Source: a virus (taxonomy: Duplodnaviria; Heunggongvirae; Uroviricota; Caudoviricetes). From it: a stretch of DNA of 36,707 nt. The position numbers and the translations under genes are program-made. The DNA lies in the IMG/VR virus record IMGVR_UViG_2698536471_000008; one strand, given 5' to 3'. Shown here piece after piece: positions 11,030 to 35,910 of this stretch. The notes under the pieces are model-generated. The model did not search any database and was not told the DNA's origin. It worked only from the letters and a program-made list of their open reading frames with translations. Position 1 is the first letter of the stretch; the number at the start of each line of letters is the position of its first letter.

Positions 11030-11046
11030 AAATTAATTAGAGCAAT
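11030..11046. promoter_or_regulatory. C1 repressor operator in the ssb-lyz divergent intergenic region
   Basis: AAATTAATTAGAGCAAT matches the reverse complement of the recalled P1 operator consensus ATTGCTCTAATAAATTT at 16 of 17 positions. Confidence 0.6.
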
Positions 11047-14826: not shown

Positions 14827-17800
14827 ATGAACAAGCTATCTATGGGGGTGTTTCGCTGTTCAAGTGTCAGCGAAATATTGAAATACATTAGGGCAATAAC
14901 ATCTCACCGAGCGCCGATTAAATACGGCGTGGAAAAGGTGGAAGGCAAAAGCTATGACCGACTGCGCCGTGAGGCGAATCAGAAGGCGATAGATTTGCTT
15001 AATTCGCTGGTGGACGGCGCGACACTGACAGATGAACAGCGCCAGATCCTGGCTGGGTACACCGGTGAAGGCGGCATTGGCGGGTCCGTCTCCGAATATT
15101 ACACACCAAAGCCGATCGCTGAAGGTGTCTGGGAGATCATGAAGCTCTACGGCGCGGACGTAGGTAACACTCTGGAACCATCGGCGGGAACCGGCGTTTT
15201 TAATGAGACAAAACCGGTTGGTACGGTGATGACCGCGACTGAGATCAGCAGTGTTTCCGGTCGTATAAACCAGCTGTTGCACCCGGAAGACAGCGTACAG
15301 ATTTCTCCGTTCGAACAACTGGCTGTAAGCACGCCTAACGATTCATTCGACCATGTTGTGGGTAACGTTCCGTTCGGTGGTCGTGATAACACACGCAACA
15401 TCGATAAGCCTTACGCAGAAGAAACGGACATGGGTTCTTACTTCATGCTCCGCATGCTGGACAAGATAAAGCCAGGCGGATTCATGTGCGTGATTGTGCC
15501 GCCGTCCATTGTTTCAGGTTCAAACATGAAGCGGTTACGCCTGCGCCTATCACGGAAAGCTGAATTTCTTGGTGCCCACCGCTTGCCTACCGGTACTTTT
15601 GACGCAAACGGGACCAGTACAGTTGTTGATGTGGTGCTGATGCGCAAACATCCGGCAGAGATGGCTGAGAAAATCCCCCTGGTGGATGAAAGCACTCTCG
15701 AATCGGCAAATGTGCTTTGGCCAACGTTTATTTCTGGCAAGTGGTTTGAAAAGGACGGCCGCCGGTTTGTTCATGGCACCCAGGAAAAGGGCTTCCAGGG
15801 GCGTATTGAGGTTCGTGCCGACGGTCAGATTGATAACCAGGCTCTTAAAGCGAAGCTGATTCATCGTTTCGAAAGCCGTATCGACTGGTCTTTGCTCGAT
15901 ATGGCTGAACCGTCACCGACCGCAGACGTTGTTGGTGAAGGGGAAATGCGCCTGATTAATGGCGTATGGCAAAAATATGCTGGTGGTCGCTGGATTGAAG
16001 CTGATGCCGGGAAGGAACTTAAGATCGATGCTGCCAGTTATGGCGCGGATAGCTGGGAGGCTCTTCAGCGTAACCTGACTACAACAGAAGGCCGTCTCGG
16101 CATGACATTTACCCAGATGGCAAATGTCCGCGATAAGTACACCACATCAATCAGCGACGATATGGTGCAGCTGGTGGACTGGATTAACAGCCAGCCTGAA
16201 AAATACCGTGAACGCTTGTATCGCGGGGCGATGATTGGCCGGATGTTAATTGAATATCAGGACATGAAGGCCGCCGGGCATAGTGCTGAACAAATCGAAC
16301 AGCAGCGCCTTTCTCTGGTATCCCGTTTGCAGGCAGAGATTGACCGTTTTGGTAACCCCGGTCGCGGTCCGATAGCGAAATTGTCGGGGAGCGGTGCGCG
16401 CGCTTGGTTTGCTTTCCGTGGTGCAATTAAGCTGGATGGCACTATTTCTGACGAGCTGACAGGGAAGCTGGTTACGCATGATTCCAGCGCAAGTTATGAC
16501 TCCACCAGCTATCAGGACACCCTGCGTTATCTCTATAGCGATCTCACCCGCGATCCAATCCAGCTCGATGATTTCCGCCTTGCGTTTACCGGCGAACTGC
16601 CAGCCAGTGATGAAGAGTTGCTTAATTTATTGGCCAGCACCCCTGGTATTGCGGTTTCACCGTATGGCGGGATTGTTCCGTTCGCCCGCGCCACCAGCGG
16701 CGACATTAACGAGATAGTGGCTCCAAAACAGGAATTCCTCGCCACACTCCCCGACGGTCCAGTAAAGAACAACGTCCTTAATCAGCTGGCAGCTATCGAA
16801 GAGAAGCGCATCAAGACGCCAGCAGAGAATATCCGGTTTAAGCTCAATAGCCGTTGGTTCGACCGTTCCGTCATTCTGGAATTTTTGCAGGAAAACGGCT
16901 ATCCGGATCTGCGCTATGTGCAGTCAGTGCAGCTGGAAGGCGACGAAATGGTTTCTGACACCTATCACGGTGGTGATGGTCTGTTCGTCGGGCACCGATA
17001 CGGTGTCGTCCAGCGCAAGGATAAAGAAACAGGTGAGATTCGCTACGAGTGGGACCGTAAATCAGGTGAAAACGCGACCGGGTTCCCGGCACAGCTGGAA
17101 AAGTATCTCAATGGTGCGCGTATCGGTGGCAAAGATAGCGCGACGGCGAACGGCTACCGCGAGCAGATGGCACTGCTTGAGGACCAGTTCAATAAGTGGA
17201 TCAAGACGCACGATCGCTACGATGAGCTGGTTGCCAAATACAACGATGTGTTCAATAGCAATATCCCGTATGAACACTCTGGCGATCCGCTTGGGTTGAA
17301 GGGATTAAGCGGTAAGCGCCAGCCATTTGATTACCAGAATAGCGAGGTGCGCCGACTGTCCGAAGATGGGCGCGGCATCCTGGGCTTCGGCACCGGGCTG
17401 GGTAAAACCACGACCGCGCTGGCGCTTGAGGCGTTCAACTATGAGAACGGTCGCTCCACCCGTACTGCGTATGTAGTGCCTAAATCAGTGCTGGAAAACT
17501 GGTATTACGAAGCAAAAGAATTCCTGAGTGAAGAGGCATTCAGTAACTACCTGTTCGTCGGTCTTGATGTGCTGATGGATGGCGATCAGATTCGCCAGGT
17601 GCAGGTGCTCGATGAGAACGGTAAACCTGTTCTTGGTACTGATGGCACTCCAGTTATGCGCGATGCTCTTAAGCTGGCAGATGAAGCCACTATCACGGCG
17701 CGGATGAACGCGATCCCGCACTCAAATTACCGTGCAGTCGTGTTTACCAAAGAACAATACGCCCGCATTCCGCTACGTGATGACACCGTAGATGAGCATG

Positions 17801-20800
17801 CACAGGATATGCTTTATGACTTCGTTGCCGCCGGACGCGTAGCCAGCGCAATGGACTCCGACTCCCACCGCAAAGAGGCCGCGCGTCGCCGGGTATTGTC
17901 GGAGTATTCAGATACCGGCACCGAAAAAGCAGAGAAGTATCCGTACTTTGAGGATATGGGCTTCGATAGTGTGATCGCTGACGAAGGTCACAACTACCGC
18001 AATAGCTATAAAAATGGTCGCGAAGCGTCACAACTGGCCTATCTGCCCACCAGCGCGGTGGCGCAATCGGCGCGAGATATGGCAATTAAAAACGCGTACC
18101 TGATGAAAAAGAATGGTGGGCGCGGGCCGGTTCTCCTGACTGCAACGCCAGTCGTTAACACCCCGATCGATGCATACAACATGCTTTCTCATGTTCTGCC
18201 GAAGGAATACTGGCAGAACATGGGGATCTACGGTCCTGATGACTTCGTTAAATTCTTCGGCAAGACCAGGCTGGAAACGGTACAGAAAATTAGCGGTGAA
18301 GTTGAAGAAAAAATGGCGCTGGTGGGCTTTGAAAACCTTGATGCGCTGCGCGGTATATTCCATCGCTGGGTAACGCTTAAAACGGCGGAAGACGTTAAGG
18401 ATACCGTGGAGATCCCGGAGCTGGACGAACACCAGCAGGATGCACCACTTACTGAAGAACAACTGGCGGCGTATGAAGAATTGCGTCAGCAGGCGGAAGC
18501 GGCGGCCAAAGCCAACAATGGCGTAACGACCTCGGTCAATGAAGACGGCGTGATTGAGCACGAGAAAGCCCGTCCGATCTTCTCAATAATCAGGGATATG
18601 GACCGCGTATGTACTGACATGGACCTGTACTATCGCCGGATCACCTATCGTTTCCTGCCGGAGTACGCCGATGCGGTGCAGCAGCTGGCGGACAGTTTGC
18701 CTAAACAAGCCACCAGCGAAGACGACGACAGTGATGATTCAATCACGCAGCAATCGCAATACTCCCTGATAGATAAGGGCGAGTTTATTCAGTTGCAGGT
18801 TCCGGAAGCGTTCGAGCAGGAAGTGAATAAGCGCCTGGCCAGGTTTGGCATTGACGAACAGACCGTAACTCACCCCGTTACGCCCAAATACGCGAAGCTG
18901 ATTGCCACGCTGAAGGAGTTTTTCCCGGAAGGTAAGCAAATCATCTTCACCGATGAAAAAACGCAGCACCAGAAGCTCAAGCGCATTATCTGCAATGCTC
19001 TTAACCTTGAACCTTCAAAGGTGGGGATACTGAATGCTCAGACGGTTGCCGAGGCAGGTAAAACCGGTAAGAAACTGAAAGCGGTTAAACCGCCGAAAGA
19101 GTTACCGGATGAACCAACAGATGCACAGATAGCGAAATACAACGAGCAAATGGCTCTGTATGACGCCTATATCGCGCAGCAAAATGAAATGTCGTTGGGC
19201 GGTCTGGAAAAGATTGCAGCCGACTTCCAGGAGGGCCGGACTCCGATCATCATCTGCAACAAAAAGGCAGAGGTGGGTATCAACCTGCATCGAGGAACGA
19301 CTGACATCCATCATCTGACGTTGCCATGGACTCCAGCCAGTATTGCGCAACGAAACGGTCGCGGTGCCCGAGTTGGCTCCAACCGTGCAAGCGTTCGCGT
19401 TCACTACTACTGCGGCAAGGGGTCTTTCGATGAATACCGACTGAAGACGCTGAAGCGTAAAGCAGGCTGGATCTCCGATATCCTCCGTTCAGATAAGTCA
19501 GAAATGGAGAACGCCGACGCCAACGATATGATCGAAATGCAGATGTATACCGCGAAGGATGACGGCGAACGTCTGGCAATGATGCAGGTTCAAATGGATA
19601 AGGCGAAAGCTGCGAAACGCGCTCGCCAGAAAGAACAGGCTACTATCGACCTTCAGAACTACATCAAGGCGCAGCACGCAGCTGGTGAGGATGTGGAGGT
19701 ACTTACCGCTGAATTGGAGCGAAGCAAAGCGGAACTTGAAAAGACCACCGCCGACGTCGCCAAATTCAAACAGGCGGTAATGGCCAAAGCAGCTGATAAC
19801 GCAGACTGGAAAGCCCGCTGGGGTAGCGTCCATCACACAGACCGTATGTTGTTAGCACAGTATCGCGCGTCGTTGAAAAGCGCCATTCAGCGCAAGGCTA
19901 ATATCTCTCAGGCCATCTCCCGCTATGAGAAATTATTGAACCGTACTCAGAAGGCCGCGACGGATATCAAACGCCTGCGCCCGCTGGTGGAGGATGCAAT
20001 AAATAAAGGCATTCTGGATGTTGATCCTGATCTGGTTAACCATGCGAATGAGTTCCTTGTTATCGGCGATCGCTCATGGCGTGTAGGCCAATACTATGAT
20101 TGTGCCGGTGATATCGTTCGCATTAAGTCGCTGGACTTCGACAGCCAGCGCGCAGACGTGGAGATCATCTTTACCTTCAAAGGCACCAAATCGGGTAACT
20201 GGGATGTGAAGACGCTGGATAAACAGGTTGATGTAACTCCCGATGAAGATGCTGTTATGCAGAAAATCAGTGGTGGCGTCTCCATCGCCGGGATTAACGA
20301 CATCGTTTCCTGTGACGATTTCTACCGTTTCCAGCAGCGCGGCATGATCAAAATCACTGACTCATACGGCGTTCAGACTACAGAGTCAGGCTATAGCATT
20401 GATTTTGTTGGTACCTATACGGACCCACTGAAGCATGCGGTTTACCCGGATCGCCGTGACAGCGCGCTGAAGTCGTCAATTGCAAAATGGGTGCTTGGTA
20501 TGATGTCGGAAGGGAATAACCGCCAGATCCGTTCGGCAGAAACATTCCTGGTTGAACTGTTTGGCTCCAATTATGGCGATGTAATCGCGTCATACGGAGA
20601 TACGCTATCCCCTGAAGCAATTCAGGAGAAAATAGCGGATGCGATCGCCAGAATGCCGGAAAAAACAAGCCAGGGGGCTACTCGTAACGGGGATTCTGAA
20701 CTTGAAGTCACCAATGCCATTTTCGGTACCAATGAGTTCCGGGCGTCAGATTATGAGATCACCACAGCACAGTTTGGCACCATTGGCATTTACAGCAATA

Positions 20801-21594
20801 AAGACGAGATCAAGCAGACAATGGACGCAGCAAGCGCGCGCATTGCAGCAGAACGGAAAGCCAATCTGAATCATGCAGTCGCCGCGCTGACTCAATCGTG
20901 GGTAACAGCAATCAGGGAGGCCGCCACCACAGGGAAAATCACACCGGCAATTGCGGATGTCGTAAACGACGGCTCTAAATTTATGGATGCCTATCAAATG
21001 GATGCGGTGCAGTTGCCATCAGCCTATGGGCAACTCAGCTATCGCATGACCTACAACCTGGTATCAATGTTTACCGACCTTGCCATCCTTGGGCTGGTGG
21101 ACCTTAACGAGGTTACGCCGGAATTGCTCAGCATGCGCAAGAATCATGTGGAGATATTGCACAGAATTAACACGGTACTTGCCGGGCGCACCGATGAAGA
21201 GAAACAGGCAGACGCTGATCGGATAAACCTGGCCCTTGGCAACATCACGGAGGAAGAAATTGCCGCCAGAAACGAGAAACAAGAAGAGTTATCATCAATA
21301 CAGGGTGATGCCACCAGCATAGCTCAGTCTCTTGGTCTGAATTATCGCGTATCCACCGCCGACCTGAAGATGATGTACGCACCAAAATTCGCCGCTGGCG
21401 AGGTATTTGGGCTTCAGGATGCCTCCGGCATGAAAGGGGTTCTTTTCCGTGCGAAAGACGCAATCAAGGCGAAATTCGGCGCTCGCTGGTTGCCAGCGAA
21501 GGCGAAGAACAGCGACTTCCCAGGTAACTGGTGGATTATCGAGACAAAACACAACGTGGCGGACGTTCTGGCCGTCATCCAACAATACGCATAA
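14827..21594 (+). CDS. darB: DarB antirestriction protein: N-terminal N6-adenine methyltransferase-like domain fused to an SF2 helicase
   Basis: 2255 aa; AdoMet motif EPSAGTGVF (nt 15178-15204), NVPF motif IV (15364-15375), Walker A GFGTGLGKTT (17383-17409), DEGH motif II (17980-17991), QRNGRGAR motif VI; size and position match P1 DarB. Confidence 0.85.
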   Translation: MNKLSMGVFRCSSVSEILKYIRAITSHRAPIKYGVEKVEGKSYDRLRREANQKAIDLLNSLVDGATLTDEQRQILAGYTGEGGIGGSVSEYYTPKPIAEGVWEIMKLYGADVGNTLEPSAGTGVFNETKPVGTVMTATEISSVSGRINQLLHPEDSVQISPFEQLAVSTPNDSFDHVVGNVPFGGRDNTRNIDKPYAEETDMGSYFMLRMLDKIKPGGFMCVIVPPSIVSGSNMKRLRLRLSRKAEFLGAHRLPTGTFDANGTSTVVDVVLMRKHPAEMAEKIPLVDESTLESANVLWPTFISGKWFEKDGRRFVHGTQEKGFQGRIEVRADGQIDNQALKAKLIHRFESRIDWSLLDMAEPSPTADVVGEGEMRLINGVWQKYAGGRWIEADAGKELKIDAASYGADSWEALQRNLTTTEGRLGMTFTQMANVRDKYTTSISDDMVQLVDWINSQPEKYRERLYRGAMIGRMLIEYQDMKAAGHSAEQIEQQRLSLVSRLQAEIDRFGNPGRGPIAKLSGSGARAWFAFRGAIKLDGTISDELTGKLVTHDSSASYDSTSYQDTLRYLYSDLTRDPIQLDDFRLAFTGELPASDEELLNLLASTPGIAVSPYGGIVPFARATSGDINEIVAPKQEFLATLPDGPVKNNVLNQLAAIEEKRIKTPAENIRFKLNSRWFDRSVILEFLQENGYPDLRYVQSVQLEGDEMVSDTYHGGDGLFVGHRYGVVQRKDKETGEIRYEWDRKSGENATGFPAQLEKYLNGARIGGKDSATANGYREQMALLEDQFNKWIKTHDRYDELVAKYNDVFNSNIPYEHSGDPLGLKGLSGKRQPFDYQNSEVRRLSEDGRGILGFGTGLGKTTTALALEAFNYENGRSTRTAYVVPKSVLENWYYEAKEFLSEEAFSNYLFVGLDVLMDGDQIRQVQVLDENGKPVLGTDGTPVMRDALKLADEATITARMNAIPHSNYRAVVFTKEQYARIPLRDDTVDEHAQDMLYDFVAAGRVASAMDSDSHRKEAARRRVLSEYSDTGTEKAEKYPYFEDMGFDSVIADEGHNYRNSYKNGREASQLAYLPTSAVAQSARDMAIKNAYLMKKNGGRGPVLLTATPVVNTPIDAYNMLSHVLPKEYWQNMGIYGPDDFVKFFGKTRLETVQKISGEVEEKMALVGFENLDALRGIFHRWVTLKTAEDVKDTVEIPELDEHQQDAPLTEEQLAAYEELRQQAEAAAKANNGVTTSVNEDGVIEHEKARPIFSIIRDMDRVCTDMDLYYRRITYRFLPEYADAVQQLADSLPKQATSEDDDSDDSITQQSQYSLIDKGEFIQLQVPEAFEQEVNKRLARFGIDEQTVTHPVTPKYAKLIATLKEFFPEGKQIIFTDEKTQHQKLKRIICNALNLEPSKVGILNAQTVAEAGKTGKKLKAVKPPKELPDEPTDAQIAKYNEQMALYDAYIAQQNEMSLGGLEKIAADFQEGRTPIIICNKKAEVGINLHRGTTDIHHLTLPWTPASIAQRNGRGARVGSNRASVRVHYYCGKGSFDEYRLKTLKRKAGWISDILRSDKSEMENADANDMIEMQMYTAKDDGERLAMMQVQMDKAKAAKRARQKEQATIDLQNYIKAQHAAGEDVEVLTAELERSKAELEKTTADVAKFKQAVMAKAADNADWKARWGSVHHTDRMLLAQYRASLKSAIQRKANISQAISRYEKLLNRTQKAATDIKRLRPLVEDAINKGILDVDPDLVNHANEFLVIGDRSWRVGQYYDCAGDIVRIKSLDFDSQRADVEIIFTFKGTKSGNWDVKTLDKQVDVTPDEDAVMQKISGGVSIAGINDIVSCDDFYRFQQRGMIKITDSYGVQTTESGYSIDFVGTYTDPLKHAVYPDRRDSALKSSIAKWVLGMMSEGNNRQIRSAETFLVELFGSNYGDVIASYGDTLSPEAIQEKIADAIARMPEKTSQGATRNGDSELEVTNAIFGTNEFRASDYEITTAQFGTIGIYSNKDEIKQTMDAASARIAAERKANLNHAVAALTQSWVTAIREAATTGKITPAIADVVNDGSKFMDAYQMDAVQLPSAYGQLSYRMTYNLVSMFTDLAILGLVDLNEVTPELLSMRKNHVEILHRINTVLAGRTDEEKQADADRINLALGNITEEEIAARNEKQEELSSIQGDATSIAQSLGLNYRVSTADLKMMYAPKFAAGEVFGLQDASGMKGVLFRAKDAIKAKFGARWLPAKAKNSDFPGNWWIIETKHNVADVLAVIQQYA

Positions 21595-21627: not shown

Positions 21628-22068
21628 ATGGCCACACTATCTGATACAATAAAACCGAATAAAACATATCTTGAGGCGGTACTCCGTACAGCGTTGTTAG
21701 GAAAGACAGAAGACGAATACGTTGATTTCTTCCTGTCAGGGCTACGCGGGCGATTACTGAAAAATCCCCGCCTGTACCGCAGCTATGGTCCATACTGGCC
21801 GGAAATTAAAAAATTATTACTGGAGCGCGGTTATGGTAATTTCGGTCGTCTCGTTGACCGTGACGTTCGCAAAATTTACCGTTATGACCGCCCGGCGCTA
21901 ACACTCATAGCCGCGACGCTCTACAGCCAGGAGCGTTTTGATAATGGTCAGATATACTCAGCCTGGCATTTACTGCCAGTGCCTGAAGAAGTTGACGACC
22001 AGGACTATGAGTTTGAGTCTTACGATTTGGAAGTTGAAGCCTTGGCACAGGCTGGAGAGAAAACTTGA
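21628..22068 (+). CDS. Ulx-like protein (by position downstream of darB)
   Basis: 146-aa ORF; start preceded by an SD-hairpin arrangement; 4-nt overlap with the next ORF. Confidence 0.5.
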   Translation: MATLSDTIKPNKTYLEAVLRTALLGKTEDEYVDFFLSGLRGRLLKNPRLYRSYGPYWPEIKKLLLERGYGNFGRLVDRDVRKIYRYDRPALTLIAATLYSQERFDNGQIYSAWHLLPVPEEVDDQDYEFESYDLEVEALAQAGEKT

Positions 22069-22313
22069 AAAAGCGATACTACACAGTAAAGCATGGGACG
22101 CTACGAGCATTACAAGAGTTTGCTGATAAGCATAACGTTGAGGTGCGCAGGGAAGGGGGAAGTAAAGCTCTGCGCATGTACCGCCCGGACGGGAAATGGC
22201 GGACGGTGGTCGATTTCAAAACTAACAGTGTTCCCCAGGGCGTCCGCGATCGGGCATTCGAAGAATGGGAGCAGATCATCATAGATAACGCATTGCTCCT
22301 GAATGCAGATTGA
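22065..22313 (+). CDS. lxc: Lxc/Bof-like C1 co-repressor (82 aa, by position and size)
   Basis: 82-aa basic ORF translationally coupled to the preceding gene; P1 Lxc/Bof is about this size as I recall. Confidence 0.55.
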   Translation: MKKRYYTVKHGTLRALQEFADKHNVEVRREGGSKALRMYRPDGKWRTVVDFKTNSVPQGVRDRAFEEWEQIIIDNALLLNAD

Positions 22314-22349
22314 CAATTTTGCCCGGAATTACCGGGCAAAATTAAGCAA

Positions 22350-23486
22350 CTATCCTTCGTTACGAAGATGCTTATCTAAGAATTTTGTAAACTGGTTTGT
22401 TGAGCCAAAATAGTTGGGGTAGGCTTTTTTTAGTGACTTAATGTTATCTGTAGCAACGAGAACAGATATCAATACATTAGGATTAGAATCGTCTTTATTT
22501 AAGGCCTCAAGGGCTTCATCTGCTTCTTTTGTTTTAAATGCGCGAACAGACACTAGGAACATTTTTTTGTTTTTTGTATTGGGCTTGTTTTCTGCATTTC
22601 TCATTGTTACTAAGTAATGCCCCTTATGATTTTTTGGCAACTTCTTAATCAAATTCGCGTCAGAAGTTAAATTTAAGGCGATGGTGTATGTGCTTAGTTT
22701 CCTCCGTACAGATAAAGTCCGTTCCAGCTCTTTAAGCTCGCCTTCATACTGAGATACAACTAGCTCATCAAGAGTGCAGGCTTTTTCGTCGTGCGCTACA
22801 AGACATCCGGCTAGATAGAAAAATCGTCTCCATTCTGGATGCCCTTCACTTGAAGTTTTCAGCTTGATACCTTCAAGGGTATCAATTATTTCAAGGCTAG
22901 TAGCCCAAGCATGCTGCAATTGAGTTCTTAACTGTATCTCAATCTTTGTTTTTCGCCACGGATATTGATCCTCTTTCTGATCGAAGCAACTGTATGCAAG
23001 GTGGATTCCACTATAGCCGCTGTCTTTGGGAGTAAGATAATCATACTCTTTAACAATCCTATGAACAGATTTGCTTTTTAAAAGACGTTCCTTTAGCTGT
23101 ATCAACTGGTCTAAGTTTCTGACAATGGCCCTACATCCGCCAACGTCCTGCATCCGTGTTAATTTAATTGCATTGCTAGTTCTGCCTCCATCAAGACTAG
23201 GACGCTCTAGTTTATCTATTATGGTAGAAAGTCGCTTAAGTCTTCTTGCAACGAGAATCTTTTTGTCCTTGTCAACCTTAGCAGCTGCTCTTGCTAAATG
23301 ATTTTTCATGAGCATTAATGGATAAAGATGCAGCTCACGGAAATTTTGTATCATTTCAATAGATTGCTGCCTTTCTTCGTCACTACACCCGTGCCTTATC
23401 AATTGAGCAGCCCTATCAATTTGAGATTTTGAATATTTCAACTTGCATTTTTGACTTTGATAAACTTCATTCCCCATTGCTTTCAT
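22350..23486 (-). CDS. RelA/SpoT-family (toxSAS) nucleotidyltransferase with C-terminal extension; CapRel-type fused toxin-antitoxin candidate
   Basis: Synthetase-domain signatures in order: RRLKRLSTIIDK, DVGGCRAIV, YSGIHL, EIQLRTQLQHAWA; about 150 aa of C-terminal extension; visibly AT-rich single gene occupying the P1 res/mod position. Confidence 0.75.
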   Translation of the reverse strand: MKAMGNEVYQSQKCKLKYSKSQIDRAAQLIRHGCSDEERQQSIEMIQNFRELHLYPLMLMKNHLARAAAKVDKDKKILVARRLKRLSTIIDKLERPSLDGGRTSNAIKLTRMQDVGGCRAIVRNLDQLIQLKERLLKSKSVHRIVKEYDYLTPKDSGYSGIHLAYSCFDQKEDQYPWRKTKIEIQLRTQLQHAWATSLEIIDTLEGIKLKTSSEGHPEWRRFFYLAGCLVAHDEKACTLDELVVSQYEGELKELERTLSVRRKLSTYTIALNLTSDANLIKKLPKNHKGHYLVTMRNAENKPNTKNKKMFLVSVRAFKTKEADEALEALNKDDSNPNVLISVLVATDNIKSLKKAYPNYFGSTNQFTKFLDKHLRNEG

Positions 23487-23579
23487 CCATTTTAAATGAT
23501 TTACATGCTGTTACATCTAATGATAAAGCGGTTAGAAAATCAATGGAGAATGTAACCACAAAATTACTGTATGTAATTG

Positions 23580-24221
23580 TTAAAAATAATTATGCTTGCC
23601 TGTTAATACCCCTTTCGGCACTTTTTTTTGTTCCAGTATCTGGGTGCCCAGAATTATGTTAATCAGTGGACTTAGTAACGATGGTTCTTGGCGGGCCTCA
23701 ACTTCTCCAGCCATTGCCCTGATGTAGTCGGCGCTGGCAACGTTGTTGTATTCCGTCGCAAAGCAACATAGTAACGTCAGAACATGCTCTGTCGTTATTT
23801 CGCTCCAGTTGATGTTGAAAAATTCATCGCCTTTTTTATCGTGTTCGGAATCGAAGATGCTTTGGTGGAGAATGTATTTGCCGGATTCCTTGCGCGGTAA
23901 CTTGATTGCTTTCTGGCGTTCCAGCTCCTTGTAAATCTGCATTGCTTCAATCAGTACCGGCCTGCCGTTCATGAAGGGATCGCGCAACCTTACACGCTGG
24001 CCAACTCGACCAGTAATAAAGCTGTTTTCCTCTTCCACCAGCACGATAAAACCCTTTTCCTCTTTTTCTCGCAATTCGCGCAGCAGCTGGAGTTCCATAT
24101 CGCGGCGGCGTTCAGGGTAGCTGGTCCGCTCAGCCATTATCAGCTCGTTATTGATCCATGCAGCAGTCATTGACGCCGGTTTGCCGACGCTCATCGAAAC
24201 AACGCATATTTTCTTATCCAT
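23580..24221 (-). CDS. mat: Mat-like particle maturation protein (by position)
   Basis: Start taken as the ATG at 24221 (MDKKICV) with GGGGG SD 4 nt upstream; the longer track ORF to 24368 runs through the promoter region and has an implausible N-terminus. Confidence 0.5.
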   Translation of the reverse strand: MDKKICVVSMSVGKPASMTAAWINNELIMAERTSYPERRRDMELQLLRELREKEEKGFIVLVEEENSFITGRVGQRVRLRDPFMNGRPVLIEAMQIYKELERQKAIKLPRKESGKYILHQSIFDSEHDKKGDEFFNINWSEITTEHVLTLLCCFATEYNNVASADYIRAMAGEVEARQEPSLLSPLINIILGTQILEQKKVPKGVLTGKHNYF

Positions 24222-24410
24222 AGCGCCCCCTACAAAAAAGAAAAGCCACCAGCGGCGGCTTAGCAATACAACTGAAGGTAGCGCCCGGTACTCAGACTGT
24301 GCCGTCCATGGAATATTTGAAAAGGGATCCATCCGTACCGGGCATGTGATGATTCTGACTGAAGTCACTTGTCAGTTGTCAATCATTTATCATTAAAAAT
24401 AATATATTTA

Positions 24411-27106: not shown

Positions 27107-27123
27107 AGAATTATTAGAGCAAT
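27107..27123. promoter_or_regulatory. C1 operator (Op99-type, reverse orientation)
   Basis: ATTAGAGCAAT core at 27113-27123 with adjacent AAATTTT. Confidence 0.6.
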
Positions 27124-27183: not shown

Positions 27184-27210
27184 TTGACAATTGCTCTAAT
27201 AAATTATAGT
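27184..27210 (+). promoter_or_regulatory. Promoter with overlapping C1 operator driving the imc-coi-c1 region (P99-like)
   Basis: TTGACA (27184-27189) followed by ATTGCTCTAATAAATTA (27190-27206, 16 of 17 to consensus) and TATAGT at 27205-27210. Confidence 0.6.
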
Positions 27211-27444: not shown

Positions 27445-27654
27445 ATGGCTTTCATTCCACCAACCATCGACGACGTTAGACATTGCTCTAACGCTTTATC
27501 TGTAGACCCTGCCGAAACCGACGCTGCCCGCGCCATTGCTGAACACTACTCAAAGATATCCAATCAGGAGTACCGCATCACCCAAGACGACCTGGATGAT
27601 CTCACTGACACAATCGAATATCTCATGGCCACTAACCAGCCAGACTCACAATAA
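27445..27654 (+). CDS. coi: Coi, C1 inactivator
   Basis: 69-aa product MAFIPPTIDDVRHCSNALS..., recognised as P1 Coi; immediately upstream of c1. Confidence 0.85.
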   Translation: MAFIPPTIDDVRHCSNALSVDPAETDAARAIAEHYSKISNQEYRITQDDLDDLTDTIEYLMATNQPDSQ

Positions 27655-27764
27655 ATGCACTAATAAATCTATTATTTTCGTTGGATCCTTCTATAATGGT
27701 GGCCAACAACTCCCAGTGTAATCCGCTGTGAGTTGTTGGCCATGTCAATTCTGGAGGAGGATCA

Positions 27765-28640: not shown

Positions 28641-30125
28641 TTATTCATTAAGCCATGCCAGAGCTTCATCAACCTGCGCTTCGTCTTCGACGCTAAGCAC
28701 TTCATCCTGGGGAACATAGTTCGCCAACATAGCGAAACAATATGTATCCCAATGGTCCGGTGAGTGCAGGTTGAGTTTTTTCTTCATATCTTCCTTTGAC
28801 ATCACCTTCCATTGACCTGCGGAATTTATCCCTACCGGTATCTTTGATGCTTCCTCTATAGTCGCAGCCCCCTTATCAAGCCTCATACGCCCTGATTTTA
28901 CAGCTTCTGCCGCCTGAATATTCGCGAAAGCGCGCATATCGAAATAAAGGCTTTTATCTTCACGGCTGTGCATCTTTTTACCCCAGCGGATACGCTGGAC
29001 GGTAATGCCATAGCGTTCGTACATTAGATCAGCCGTCGATTTCCCCAAGCCATCGCCATCAATAGCTATGGTTATGTTCGGGAACCGTTCTGGGTTACAT
29101 TCTGCGAAAATCTTGGCGGCTAACTGCGTTTCTGTAACGTCTGTGTATTCCAGCATACGATAGTTGATTACACGGCGTTTATTTCGCTGGCCGGACACCA
29201 TCATGATATTAATAACGGACTTATCTCGTCCTGTGCCACCAGCAACGTCAACACATGCAACCCAGCCCCATCCTTTGGCAATCTTGACCTTTCGCCGCGT
29301 CGCCCGCTCAACCTCATCACGACCAAGAAGAAAGCCATCTTGAGATTTGGGAAATTCACCACGTACTTTGATCATGTACATGGGGTTATCACGACCGCCA
29401 TACTCCGCAAGTTTTGCTCGTATAAATTTTGCATCTACAAGCGGAGATTCTTCACTATTCAGTATTATCGCAGTAAACAATCCATCAGGATTTCCCGGGC
29501 GAATAGCTAGTCTGTGGTGTGAATCGTAGAAATAGCCTGAAGGTCGCGTAGGCTGGGAAAGAAGCAGAATACGGTTATCCTTACCGGTCAGCGCACCTGT
29601 TATCACACTGAATGCTTTATCACTCACACCCGACGCTTCGTCGATGATATACAAGAGATGATCGGCGTGTTCACCAGCCAACGCCTCCTCATTCCCGGGG
29701 CGACAGGACTTTATCAATATTGTCCAAACACCCTTGCCAGTCACCTCAAAAAAAGACGTTTCTGTAAGAATGAAATACTTCGACAACCACGGGAATCTGC
29801 TAACAGCAGTAGCCCAATTGCTCTTTATGTATTTGAAAATACCATCAAGGACTTGCTGTCTTTTGTTAGCGACCAGAATGACGCGAGCGCCGGGGAAAAA
29901 CATGATGAAGAGTATTGCAATGATACTCGTCATATCCGATTTACCAGTACCATGGCCGGAGGTCACACTTGTCCAACTGCCGTCCTGCTGCGTGGACTCA
30001 ATGATCTCATCCTGCTGCCAGGTTGGTGTCTTCCCAAACAACACATCAGCGGCCGCAATCCAGTCATAACGATATAGCGCCACAAGCTCGCGCCAACGTG
30101 GGTCCGTTACGCAACTTCTGGCCAT
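28641..30125 (-). CDS. pacB: Terminase (pacase) large subunit PacB
   Basis: 494 aa; Walker A GHGTGKS, Walker [12 protein letters not shown]-terminal nuclease-like region; adjacent to pacA. Confidence 0.9.
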
Positions 30126-31927: not shown

Positions 31928-31944
31928 CAATACATTAGAGCAAT
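31928..31944. promoter_or_regulatory. C1 operator upstream of lpa (Op88-like)
   Basis: Minus-strand ATTGCTCTAATGTATTG, 14 of 17 to consensus. Confidence 0.6.
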
Positions 31945-33200: not shown

Positions 33201-33581
33201 CTACTCCGCAGAACCATACAATCTACGTAACGTGTCGGCGACAGAAGATACAGATATCTCGCCAGTCGCAGCGCCTACGGTAAGGTCTGCCAGTTCAGGT
33301 GAATCAAATACCTGCACCCCGTTACGGCGTAGAAATAGCAGCGCACTGTTTAGCGCGGTACGCTTATTGGCATCATTGAATATATGCCCTCTCGCTGTAG
33401 CCACCAGGTAGGTGGCGGAGACTTCGAAAAGGTCGGTGATCTCTTCGTAGGCAACTCTGGCCTGAACTCTCCCGATAATGGCCTCTGCCCTACCCGGATC
33501 AGACATTCCCGGCAGGCCGCCGTAGCGGCTTATATTCGCATCATGAAGCGCAACAAGTTCTTCCGGTGATATATGTCTCAT
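33201..33581 (-). CDS. doc: Doc toxin (Fic-fold kinase)
   Basis: 126 aa with Fic motif HIFNDANKR; start overlaps the phd stop (TGATG). Confidence 0.9.
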
Positions 33582-33802
33582 TATCGGTTAACCAGTTCCT
33601 TGTTGGTGGAGTCCAGGGTGTCAAACAGGGATGCAAATTCAGCATCCAGCGCCGCTTTTTTGTAGGCTTCGAAAGTAGCCTTGCTGACAATTACTGCTGG
33701 CTCACGGCCTCTGCGGGTGATTTCAACCTCTTCCCCGGCTTCAACATTGTTGAGCACTTCAGAAAGGTTGCCACGCGCGGTACGGAAGTTAATGGATTGC
33801 AT
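33581..33802 (-). CDS. phd: Phd antitoxin
   Basis: 73-aa product [49 protein letters not shown]...; classic phd-doc arrangement. Confidence 0.9.
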
Positions 33803-34302: not shown

Positions 34303-34387
34303 TACATTGAAAAGGCATAGTTTGTGAAAGCGGGGTTTGTAGGCGCGCCACGCTGGGGGCTAATCACATTTCTCCCCCATCTTGCCG

Positions 34388-34639
34388 TTATTTTTTTGGT
34401 GCATCCTCGTTCTGATACACCGGATCGCTCCCTTTTGGCAACTGGAGGCTTAACTGCCGGTAGTGCCGTAGCCGTTCCATGAAATAGGCGCGCAGGTTTT
34501 CCGGTTGCTCACGGGCCACCTGCTCTGCAATCACAGGTATATTCAGCCGTTCTTTGTAAGCAACGCCGCTGGCGGCAAGGTCTACGTTCACCTTGTCTCG
34601 CTCTTCCTGGCTTTTAGCTGCTATATTTCGATCTGACAC
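34388..34639 (-). CDS. hot: Hot, homolog of DNA polymerase III theta subunit
   Basis: 83-aa product with [33 protein letters not shown], closely resembling E. coli HolE (theta) as I recall it. Confidence 0.8.
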
Positions 34640-35006
34640 AAGAAACCTCCAGGAGTTAGTGGATCAGGCACATGCACAATAACGTTCTCAATGTTAGCCG
34701 TTCAATTCAGACAATCAGAGACTGCACCAGTGTGGTGGCATCAATCCCATTGCGGAACAGCATAGACGAACTGCAAATTCGTGTATTGAATCCGAATCAG
34801 GCTAATAAGCAATTGCGCTTTATTTTGACGCTGAAAAGTGAAACAGAGGGGATAAAGCACAGCGTAAAAGTGTTTTCTGAGGCCATTCTGCTTAATGGGA
34901 AGCTCCGGCATCTGGTAAGGCCAGAACGTCAATATCCTGACGTCCTGGCGCGTGAAAAAGACCTTCTTTCTGAAGTTCAGGATAGGGTGATCGATTTCGT
35001 CAAATG

Positions 35007-35291
35007 CTATCCCCTGCATTGAGGGCAGGTGTTCCCTTCCGCAAAGTAGGGAAAATTGCTATCAAGTTCATCACACCATCTGCGATGGTCGTAGCACCAA
35101 AACGCCTCCCACGGTGCACGGAAATACTTCATCCACCAGGACACTCGATCAGGTATATCTGCTGGTGGCAGTTCTTCTGGCAATAATTTGCCTGATAATT
35201 CCCTTTCCGCCCGCGACAGCATTTTTTTGAGGCTCGCGTTCTCTTTTTCAAGCTCATCTACGCGCACCTGTAATTCAGCTTTCGTTGGCAT
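35007..35291 (-). CDS. Hypothetical coiled-coil protein with C-terminal CPQC zinc-ribbon-like motif
   Basis: ATG at 35291 with GAGGTGG upstream, overlapping the end of the preceding gene; the longer track ORF to 35372 is less likely. Confidence 0.4.
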   Translation of the reverse strand: MPTKAELQVRVDELEKENASLKKMLSRAERELSGKLLPEELPPADIPDRVSWWMKYFRAPWEAFWCYDHRRWCDELDSNFPYFAEGNTCPQCRG

Positions 35292-35910
35292 GGTCCACCT
35301 CATGCTTTTCAGCCACCAGCGGCAATAAAGCCCTGGCCATCTTATGAACCAATAGTGCATCAATAATGCCAAGCGTATGCCCCGGCTTAATGTTTAATGC
35401 CGCCTCAAGGTGACACCTTTCCAGGTCACTTTTCTCGGCTTGTTTATGATGATCTGGTGTAATAACGTCGCCCAAAACACGGCTAATTCTTTCTCGTAAT
35501 TGCTGGGTGCCAGCACACTTGATCGCTGTATCGTGGAGACGGTTAACCAGTTCGCGATAAACATGCGGCTTAATGCGGATACGTTCACCGGTGACGCCCT
35601 TTCCTGGCGCTGGCACCGAACTATCCGGAATATCCGGATAGTTGCCAGCCTCGTAAGCTACCCACAGCCAGTGCATGAATGTTTCAGTGGACACACAACC
35701 ACAGTCCACATCGATTTTTCCGCGTTGCTGTTCCAGCCAATGCTCAAAATTCAATCTACACGTATTACTTTCATGTTGCTCTTTTTGTCTCAAGGCCAGC
35801 ATCTGCTGGGCTATTTCCAATACTTCATCTGCCGTATATCCAGCACCGTGACCATACATTTCGATACGGGAAATAATCTCTGATATGCGCTCTTCAGTGA
35901 TTCTGGTCAT
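35275..35910 (-). CDS. Hypothetical protein
   Basis: ATGA overlap with the stop of the upstream membrane-protein gene suggests the start at 35910; the track start at 35925 is also possible. Confidence 0.5.
   Translation of the reverse strand: MTRITEERISEIISRIEMYGHGAGYTADEVLEIAQQMLALRQKEQHESNTCRLNFEHWLEQQRGKIDVDCGCVSTETFMHWLWVAYEAGNYPDIPDSSVPAPGKGVTGERIRIKPHVYRELVNRLHDTAIKCAGTQQLRERISRVLGDVITPDHHKQAEKSDLERCHLEAALNIKPGHTLGIIDALLVHKMARALLPLVAEKHEVDHANES

Follow-up and report, generated by a model that had tools for sequence, protein, structure and literature searches.

Phage P1 carries its type III restriction-modification genes, res and mod, between lxc and mat, and the locus studied here raises the question of what a P1-like element carries when a different gene sits in that place. 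The stretch of DNA that we analyzed, called the window throughout, is 36,707 nucleotides (nt) long and comes from a virus of the Caudoviricetes (IMG/VR virus record IMGVR_UViG_2698536471_000008). A first-pass annotation made from the sequence had described a single minus-strand gene between lxc and mat as a RelA/SpoT-type toxin gene in a swappable defense-cargo slot and had suggested that it might be a CapRel. Our analysis leads us to read the gene, with a probability of about 90%, as a functional fused CapRel, a single-polypeptide toxin-antitoxin that serves as defense cargo and protects the P1-like lysogen from other phages. The function of the window allele (toxicity, tRNA pyrophosphorylation and abortive infection) would follow by homology from that of CapRel-SJ46 (PMC9712102, PMC11578894). 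As the first-pass annotation said, the fused CapRel on which the family was founded belongs to a P1-like phage of Salmonella: SJ46 is a Punavirus with CapRel in the lxc-mat slot (Zhang et al. 2022, PMC9712102), and P1-like phage-plasmids of Escherichia coli commonly carry CapRel (2025 preprint, 10.1101/2025.09.12.675607). CapRel is hence an already described family whose carriage by P1-like elements is published, and no new kind of system is present here.

The open reading frame (ORF) in the ORF list of the window spans 22350..23486 on the minus strand and encodes 378 amino acids (aa), as previously stated, and its translation includes all four motifs named for it (RRLKRLSTIIDK, DVGGCRAIV, YSGIHL and EIQLRTQLQHAWA). 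The length of 378 aa holds for the ORF, but the true start of capRel is probably the second in-frame ATG at 23477, which gives 375 aa; the ATG at 23486 would add the residues MKA and is probably not used. Position 23477 corresponds to the RefSeq start of WP_000526244.1, taken from the coding sequence (CDS) on a 98-99% identical plasmid. At this ATG, homologues that are not in P1-like elements also read ATGGG(G/A)AATGAA, but they have no in-frame ATG 9 nt upstream, and the crystallized SJ46 CapRel begins at the equivalent residue.

The family of the protein was clear from profile and sequence searches. Pfam RelA_SpoT (PF04607) matched aa 82-196 of the 378-aa ORF at 3e-12, with 47.2 bits against a cut-off of 27, and the PADLOC defense candidate PDC-S33 matched aa 14-374 at 6.7e-86. 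Among all PDB sequences, the best matches were 7ZTB (E 5e-185), titled 'Salmonella tRNA pyrophosphokinase CapRel', and 9ERV (E 2.5e-184), CapRel bound to Gp54 of phage Bas11; both are the SJ46 protein and both aligned with residues 4-374. A BLASTP comparison with CapRel-SJ46 gave 275 identical residues in 371 (74%) with one single-residue gap, and this end-to-end identity upholds the suggestion of a CapRel-type protein of a described family. RelP and RelQ came next in the PDB sequence search (E ~1e-8 to 1e-4). As the measure of a small alarmone synthetase we took the cut-off of the NCBIfam YjbM equivalog (NF053588) and the length of a stand-alone synthetase, about 210 aa. The window protein scored 35.5 bits, far under the cut-off of 320, was only ~20% identical to the RelP and RelQ structures, and was ~175 residues longer at its C-terminus. 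Judged by these scores, it is not a housekeeping small alarmone synthetase.

We then compared the parts of the protein with those known from the family. A fused CapRel is defined by a toxSYNTH domain in which Y155 is the tyrosine of the G-loop and R79 and R116 are arginines that stack on ATP, and its antitoxin is a C-terminal, cysteine-free zinc-finger-like domain between anchor helices; in the closed state of CapRel-SJ46 a YxxY motif (Y352, Y355) plugs the ATP site, and substituting the interface residues A77, V338, L339, A341 and A351 makes CapRel constitutively toxic (all PMC9712102). The gene and the parts of its product are laid out as follows:

22350..23477, minus strand: capRel CDS, 375 aa plus stop; RefSeq protein WP_000526244.1; full-length match to 7ZTB and 9ERV; PADLOC PDC-S33
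22878..23477, minus strand: toxin part, aa 1-200; alpha-helical N-terminus and toxSYNTH (RelA/SpoT) core, placed by Pfam RelA_SpoT and residue mapping
22632..22877, minus strand: anchor-1 helices (alpha7-alpha9), aa ~201-282, which link toxin to sensor; AlphaFold helices 214-230, 238-255, 257-270 and 274-279
22443..22631, minus strand: pseudo-zinc-finger sensor/antitoxin, aa 283-345; three beta strands and one helix; the most diverged part of the protein
22353..22442, minus strand: anchor-2 helices, aa 346-375, which carry the YxxY neutralization motif

All 10 catalytic and autoinhibition residues (A77, R79, R116, Y155, V338, L339, A341, A351, Y352 and Y355) are the same as in SJ46. In an alignment of 56 homologues R79, R116, Y155 and A352-Y353-P354-N355-Y356 (this last motif in window numbering) are invariant. 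The codon of Y155 lies at 23013-23015, within SGYSG translated from 23007-23021, and the YxxY motif reads YPNY (aa 353-356, translated from nt 22410-22421). The translation contains no cysteine in aa 283-345. An AlphaFold model of the window protein, built on the 56-homologue alignment, had a mean pLDDT of 80.8 and a pTM of 0.79. In its sensor, the strands span 286-294, 307-315 and 335-342, a helix (316-330) lies between strands two and three, and the terminal helices follow; this is the published pseudo-zinc-finger topology (beta-beta-alpha-beta). Foldseek ranked 9ERV (E 8e-39) and 7ZTB (E 1e-37) at the top, with TM scores of 0.67-0.74, and small alarmone synthetases behind them (E ~1e-6). 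The alignment to the CapRel-SJ46 structures through residue 374, together with the sensor and anchors of the model, bears out the antitoxin-like C-terminal domain for which the first-pass annotation had proposed to look; the RelA_SpoT domain that it had expected is the Pfam match given above.

Compared with the SJ46 allele, the catalytic part of the protein is conserved and the sensor has changed. The toxin part is 78-79% identical, and identity falls from 77% over SJ46 residues 1-269 to 63% over SJ46 270-339, with 65% at the C-terminus; the sensor is also the region of lowest conservation across the family. The non-synonymous distance (dN) between the alleles is 0.19 overall, 0.14-0.17 in the toxin part and 0.28 in the sensor, and because synonymous sites are saturated we give dN alone and no dN/dS per domain. 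We considered 11 positions implicated in trigger recognition in CapRel-SJ46: L280 and L307 for the capsid protein of SECphi27, and K269, L270, D273, N275, L276, K278, S279, R314 and K316 for Bas11 Gp54. Eight of these are as in SJ46, and the changes are K269N, S279K and R314K. Helix alpha9 (270-279) of CapRel-SJ46, which contacts Gp54 (PMC11578894), keeps 8 of its 10 residues, with K269N immediately before it. A different sequence, longer by one residue, forms the beta6-beta7 loop (AENKPNTKNKKM in the window, AITK-NGKDTGK in SJ46), and helix alpha10 is largely replaced. Homologues were sought among 5.8 billion clustered proteins; of the 20 closest that this search returned, the best is 78% identical over the whole protein, and not one exceeds 68% identity in residues 270-345. 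A mosaic protein with its sensor taken from another known lineage was considered and rejected on the per-segment identities, which in the sensor were at most 68% for the 20 closest homologues.

At the DNA level the capRel genes of the window and SJ46 are 68.6% identical, whereas their neighbors have diverged much less (nucleotide identity of 100% for ulx, 97.6% for lxc and 94.4% for mat; lxc 100% at the protein level). It follows that the two capRel alleles long predate the backbones in which they now sit. This difference in sequence identity points to exchange of a ~1.27-kb cassette (promoter, gene and hairpin) by recombination in the lxc and mat flanks, not to divergence in place. The noncoding edges of this cassette are:

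23478..23579, minus strand: AT-rich mat-capRel intergenic spacer of 102 nt, downstream of mat; probable capRel promoter with candidate hexamers
22315..22343, no strand assigned: hairpin with 12-bp arms and a 5-nt loop, between the convergent stops of lxc (22313) and capRel (22350), found by inverted-repeat search

The gene-free AT-rich promoter region proposed earlier exists as this spacer, with the correction that it lies downstream of mat and that the two genes are co-directional. We noted a candidate -35 hexamer TTGATT (23543-23538) and a weak candidate -10 hexamer TTAGAT (23520-23515), separated by 17 nt, and a candidate ribosome-binding site GGATGA 6-11 nt ahead of the ATG at 23477. Because they are weak and were not listed by the consensus scan, the promoter hexamers are inferred. 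The spacer aligns with the ~105-nt 'native promoter' fragment of SJ46 (primer TZ-1), and its blocks CCATTGATTT and ATGTAACA are conserved in SJ46; the SJ46 fragment, placed in a promoter-less vector, was enough for defense (Zhang et al., PMC9712102). The only nearby hit of the sigma-70 scan (23662-23635) was rejected as the capRel promoter, as it lies within mat and beyond the part that corresponds to the cloned SJ46 fragment. Upstream of mat, the window retains the P1 C1 operator Omat (~24390-24405) and the sequences of the Pmat/LPmat promoters, so mat should be C1-repressed in the lysogen and capRel would need a promoter of its own. The spacer had no stable RNA structure or terminator (z -1.2), and since nothing terminator-like separates mat from capRel, read-through from the late mat promoter is possible in lytic growth. 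On the minus strand, GTTACAT (23553-23547) and ATGTAAC (23516-23510) are short inverted copies of each other, ~30 nt apart; the pair lies on both sides of the putative -35 hexamer and runs into the putative -10, and it might be the binding site of a regulator, or a chance feature of AT-rich DNA.

At the other edge the first-pass annotation had reported a 25-bp perfect palindrome. An inverted repeat is indeed present, with 12-bp arms (100% complementary) around a non-palindromic 5-nt loop, 29 nt overall. As RNA it folds with -18.4 and -21.8 kcal/mol on the two strands (z -4.4 and -4.2). No U-tract follows it on either strand. A canonical intrinsic terminator was rejected: the scan did not list one, and on both strands a T-run precedes and an A-run follows the GC stem. 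The element is probably a 3'-end hairpin or a weak two-way terminator. In RCS47, whose slot is empty, this position is taken by a related hairpin (TTTTGCCCGG-7 nt-CCGGGCA), which could be the ancestral lxc terminator or a recombination scar, and the SJ46 cassette has an unrelated hairpin there.

Taken together with work on CapRel-SJ46, these features suggest how the gene might act. In the lysogen, a promoter of its own within the 102-nt spacer would drive low, constitutive expression of capRel, the neighboring mat promoter being C1-repressed. At rest the protein would be closed, with the YxxY element between R79 and R116 and ATP excluded. A protein of an infecting phage would bind the pseudo-zinc-finger and the anchors and keep the sensor off the active site, and the activated enzyme would then move pyrophosphate from ATP onto the 3' CCA of tRNA, so that translation stops and the infection aborts. 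Each of these steps was demonstrated for CapRel-SJ46 (PMC9712102, PMC11578894), and for SJ46 and Ebc the N-terminal fragment proved toxic, was rescued in trans by the C-terminal one and lost its toxicity with Y155A (PMC9712102, PMC13423816). Our best guess is that the phage range of the window allele overlaps with that of CapRel-SJ46 but differs from it. Partial overlap would be expected because L280, L307 and most of alpha9 are kept while the beta6-beta7 loop and alpha10 are largely replaced.

Several observations weigh against a functional fused CapRel that defends the lysogen. The AlphaFold model deviates from the open crystal structures 7ZTB and 9ERV by a global root-mean-square deviation of 9-10 Å over 360 aligned columns. 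A closed-state arrangement of the domains, unlike that of the open crystal form, would fit this deviation, and a closed AlphaFold state was reported for CapRel-SJ46 (Zhang et al. 2022, PMC9712102). A full-text search of a literature library found no paper mentioning WP_000526244, and the four CapRels assayed in PMC9712102 (SJ46, Ebc, Kp and EcHT) are other alleles. The consensus scan found no strong sigma-70 site in the spacer, where the hexamers are weak, and the hairpin, which has no U-tract, may or may not serve as a terminator.

One live alternative contests only the trigger step of the explanation given above and keeps the same family and the same enzymatic output: the trigger may not be a capsid protein, but another phage protein or a complex of a phage and a host protein. 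We rate its chances as substantial, somewhat below even. The sensor is only 63% identical to that of SJ46 (SJ46 270-339), the beta6-beta7 loop that is replaced and lengthened by one residue touches the capsid A-domain in the SJ46 model, and the fact that none of the 20 closest homologues passes 68% identity in 270-345 points the same way. CapRels that are 70% identical overall have unrelated triggers (PMC13423816), and CapRel-SJ46 alone senses two unrelated proteins (PMC11578894). A capsid trigger is in turn favored by the retention of L280 and L307, which SJ46 needs for capsid sensing, and of 8 of the 11 trigger-contact positions, and by a C-terminal identity to SJ46 of 65%, compared with 47% for CapRel-Ebc.

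The other explanations would replace the functional fused CapRel altogether, and all of them are very improbable. An alarmone synthetase with (p)ppGpp or (pp)pApp as its product, comparable to RelQ/RelP, FaRel or the PANGU effector Pag1B, would act by nucleotide depletion or signaling and not by tRNA modification. The Pfam and NCBIfam matches are to generic RelA/SpoT and YjbM GTP diphosphokinase models, and RelP and RelQ are the next structural matches, but the YjbM score of 35.5 bits against 320, the ~20% identity to RelP/RelQ against 74% to CapRel-SJ46 (78-79% in the toxin part) and the pyrophosphorylation of tRNA by CapRel-SJ46 (PMC9712102) argue against such an enzyme. Equally poor are the prospects of a plasmid-addiction module that stabilizes the P1-like prophage by post-segregational killing and has no role in phage defense. 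A toxin-antitoxin on a low-copy plasmid prophage would suit that role, and 83 of 87 E. coli copies are on plasmids, but here toxin and antitoxin are one polypeptide, so that the differential decay needed for addiction is impossible without processing, and CapRel-Ebc is reported to act without proteolytic processing during infection (PMC13423816). Moreover, the window already has the classical phd-doc pair (33201-33802), and the same slot in sister phages holds restriction-modification genes and other defense candidates. Least probable of all is a decaying or inactive CapRel remnant, a thought raised by the record of vB_EcoM-673R5 (ON470615.2, 99.4% identical DNA), which annotates capRel as two CDS (stretch L001:3777-4876). 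In that record darB is also split, into three CDS, and the split capRel is therefore probably the result of frameshift sequencing errors and not a pseudogene. The ORF of the window is intact with every critical residue present, the protein is 99.5-100% identical across the listed full-length plasmid copies, and non-synonymous sites have changed far less than the synonymous ones, which are saturated.

We next asked what else is found at this position in related phages. The genes that bound the slot are:

22065..22313, plus strand: lxc (modulator of C1 repressor), a backbone gene; annotated lxc in P1, SJ46 and RCS47
23580..24221, minus strand: mat (maturation control), by annotation; the backbone gene directly upstream of capRel

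In pairwise BLAST comparisons, homology to P1, RCS47, Ro157c2YLVW and OP279344 ended on the left at 22311/22313, and on this side the lxc stop codon forms the recombination boundary. On the right, homology to P1 and RCS47 restarted at 23579/23586, making the mat stop the boundary against these two phages, and that to Ro157c2YLVW and OP279344 restarted only at 23712, within mat. The slot limits of 22314-23579 drawn earlier agree with these breaks, on the right for P1 and RCS47. The cassette is also AT-rich relative to its surroundings, as noted before, with a GC content of 38.0% compared with 51.6% in the 5 kb to its left, 46.4% in the 5 kb to its right and 48.6% in the entire window. The gene is transcribed in the direction of mat and is convergent with lxc, and because only 36 nt separate its ORF from lxc and 102 nt from mat, there is no room for a separate antitoxin gene. 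The slot holds the following:

P1: res and mod (type III restriction-modification) plus IS5
SJ46: capRel, SJ46 allele
This window: capRel, second allele
RCS47: empty; a 39-bp spacer with a hairpin (stretch L004:2215-2253)
JL22: a 316-aa PIN-domain protein (stretch L012:1276-2226, plus strand); Pfam PIN_12 3.6e-18; partial PADLOC PDC-S34
MH422554: an unannotated 346-aa DUF2971 ORF (stretch L013:1267-2307, plus strand); PADLOC PDC-S31 2e-16
Ro157c2YLVW and OP279344: an AraC-type regulator (AraC-HTH) and an EAL-domain protein (stretches L005:2253-3827 and L006:2253-3878)

The lxc-mat slot is thus a real cargo hotspot with swappable content, as the first-pass annotation had supposed, and relatives of the gene lie in other prophages near integrases. 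The record of OP279344 is titled 'P1 del res del mod', yet the AraC-HTH and EAL pair fills its slot.

The rest of the window identifies the carrier. Upstream of lxc, darB and ulx lie on the plus strand, and ref, c8 and cre lie beyond mat; over most of its length the window is 98.2-99.5% identical to the E. coli plasmid p266917_2_02 (IncY, 97 kb). This gene order (lxc, mat, ulx, darB, ref, c8 and cre) and the plasmid match identify the window as a P1-like phage-plasmid. It is not p266917_2_02 itself, given an identity of 98.2-99.5% and a difference at 34.3-35.3 kb. Window positions 34312-35310 align with that plasmid at 85% identity over just 243 bp, with an offset of ~630-1,000 bp, and from the sequence this region appears to be a second variable locus, with hot (DNA polymerase III theta homologue) and humD-like genes close by. 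An intact darB (14827-21594, plus strand, 2,255 aa) is followed by ulx, and anti-restriction (counter-defense) genes thus adjoin the defense-cargo slot. The phd-doc module at 33201-33802 is on the minus strand and consists of a Phd/YefM antitoxin and a death-on-curing toxin, the classical P1 addiction module, so the element has a plasmid-stabilizing toxin-antitoxin apart from CapRel. Rfam and ARAGORN found no structured RNA or tRNA in the whole window. A scan of the window with the P1 C1-operator consensus ATTGCTCTAATAAATTT gave seven matches with at most 3 mismatches, where 0.14 are expected by chance:

11030-11046, 14881-14897, 27107-27123, 27190-27206, 27654-27670, 29413-29429, 31928-31944: matches to the C1-operator consensus

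With these seven matches and the conserved Omat, the C1 immunity circuit looks intact.

The window allele (at least 99% identity) is present in 83 of 5,426 complete E. coli genomes, in 87 copies of which 83 are on plasmids. The SJ46 allele is found in 14 of these genomes, making the window allele ~six times commoner. The P1-like ulx-lxc backbone occurs in 699 of them, ~12% of which (83/699) have the window allele. In PLSDB, 52 plasmids have the window allele and ~22 have a gene at 60-80% identity, the SJ46-type ones all at 73.8%, and none falls between the two groups. The nearest relatives outside P1-like elements lie among small genes of unknown function on an Atlantibacter chromosome, and other near relatives, on two metagenome contigs, lie beside an integrase gene and a few kb from a phage tape-measure gene.

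CapRel is among the few bacterial immune proteins whose sensing of phage proteins is understood at the atomic level, and all of this knowledge comes from the SJ46 allele and from a few relatives on chromosomes or in prophages. The window allele is a natural comparison partner for SJ46, since its sensor is 63% identical and its catalytic and autoinhibitory machinery is unchanged, and swapping or mutating the ~40 differing sensor residues between the alleles could reveal how trigger specificity evolves. For annotation, the generic label 'RelA/SpoT domain-containing protein', which the gene product bears in over 80 complete E. coli genomes, could give way to 'CapRel-type fused toxin-antitoxin, anti-phage'. 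More tentatively, and clearly short of an even chance, P1-like phage-plasmids may keep at least two anciently diverged CapRel alleles at one hotspot under frequency-dependent selection, the commoner one having a novel trigger. If so, this trigger would be from another capsid lineage or a non-capsid phage protein new for any CapRel, both alleles would persist through different phage populations, and the carrier would have to stop its own late proteins from triggering the toxin.

Among known systems, CapRel-SJ46 is the closest to the window gene, with the same architecture (toxSYNTH, anchor-1, pseudo-zinc-finger, and anchor-2 with YxxY), slot and orientation and a homologous upstream spacer. It differs in its DNA (68.6% identity), its diverged sensor and the other hairpin after its stop, and it is ~six times rarer in E. 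coli. Other assayed fused CapRels are CapRel-EcHT (E. coli HT2012018), CapRel-Ebc (Enterobacter chengduensis) and CapRel-Kp (Klebsiella pneumoniae) (PMC9712102), which share the single-gene fused design and all confer defense, each with a phage range of its own, set by the C-terminal domain (PMC9712102, PMC13423816). CapRel-Ebc is 70% identical to CapRel-SJ46 overall and 47% at the C-terminus, and their triggers are unrelated; it senses T7 Gp0.4 with FtsZ and not a capsid protein (PMC13423816). We also considered whether the window allele is the assayed CapRel-EcHT and rejected this, as the gene text in the supplement of PMC9712102 (machine-read, with errors) fits best the lineage P0012, which is ~70% identical to the window protein. 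The upstream region of EcHT matches P0005, which lies beside an integrase and a few kb from a phage tape-measure gene, not in a P1-like element.

Two-gene toxSAS systems (PhRel/ATphRel of mycobacteriophage Phrann and FaRel2/ATfaRel2) share with the window gene the toxSYNTH fold and the pyrophosphorylation of the tRNA CCA end that blocks translation, and that of Phrann is a prophage-borne defense (PMC9712102). Their antitoxin is separate, whereas that of the window gene is fused in cis with no second gene, and the FaRel2 structure 8PU3 was a weak structural match to the window model (E 4e-3). EcoP1I of P1 (res/mod) occupies the same lxc-mat slot and has the same general purpose, protection of the lysogen from other phages, but its proteins are unrelated and work by DNA cleavage with self-methylation. 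The res/mod insert measures ~6.2 kb including IS5 and runs in the direction of lxc, whereas the capRel cassette measures 1.27 kb and runs in the direction of mat.

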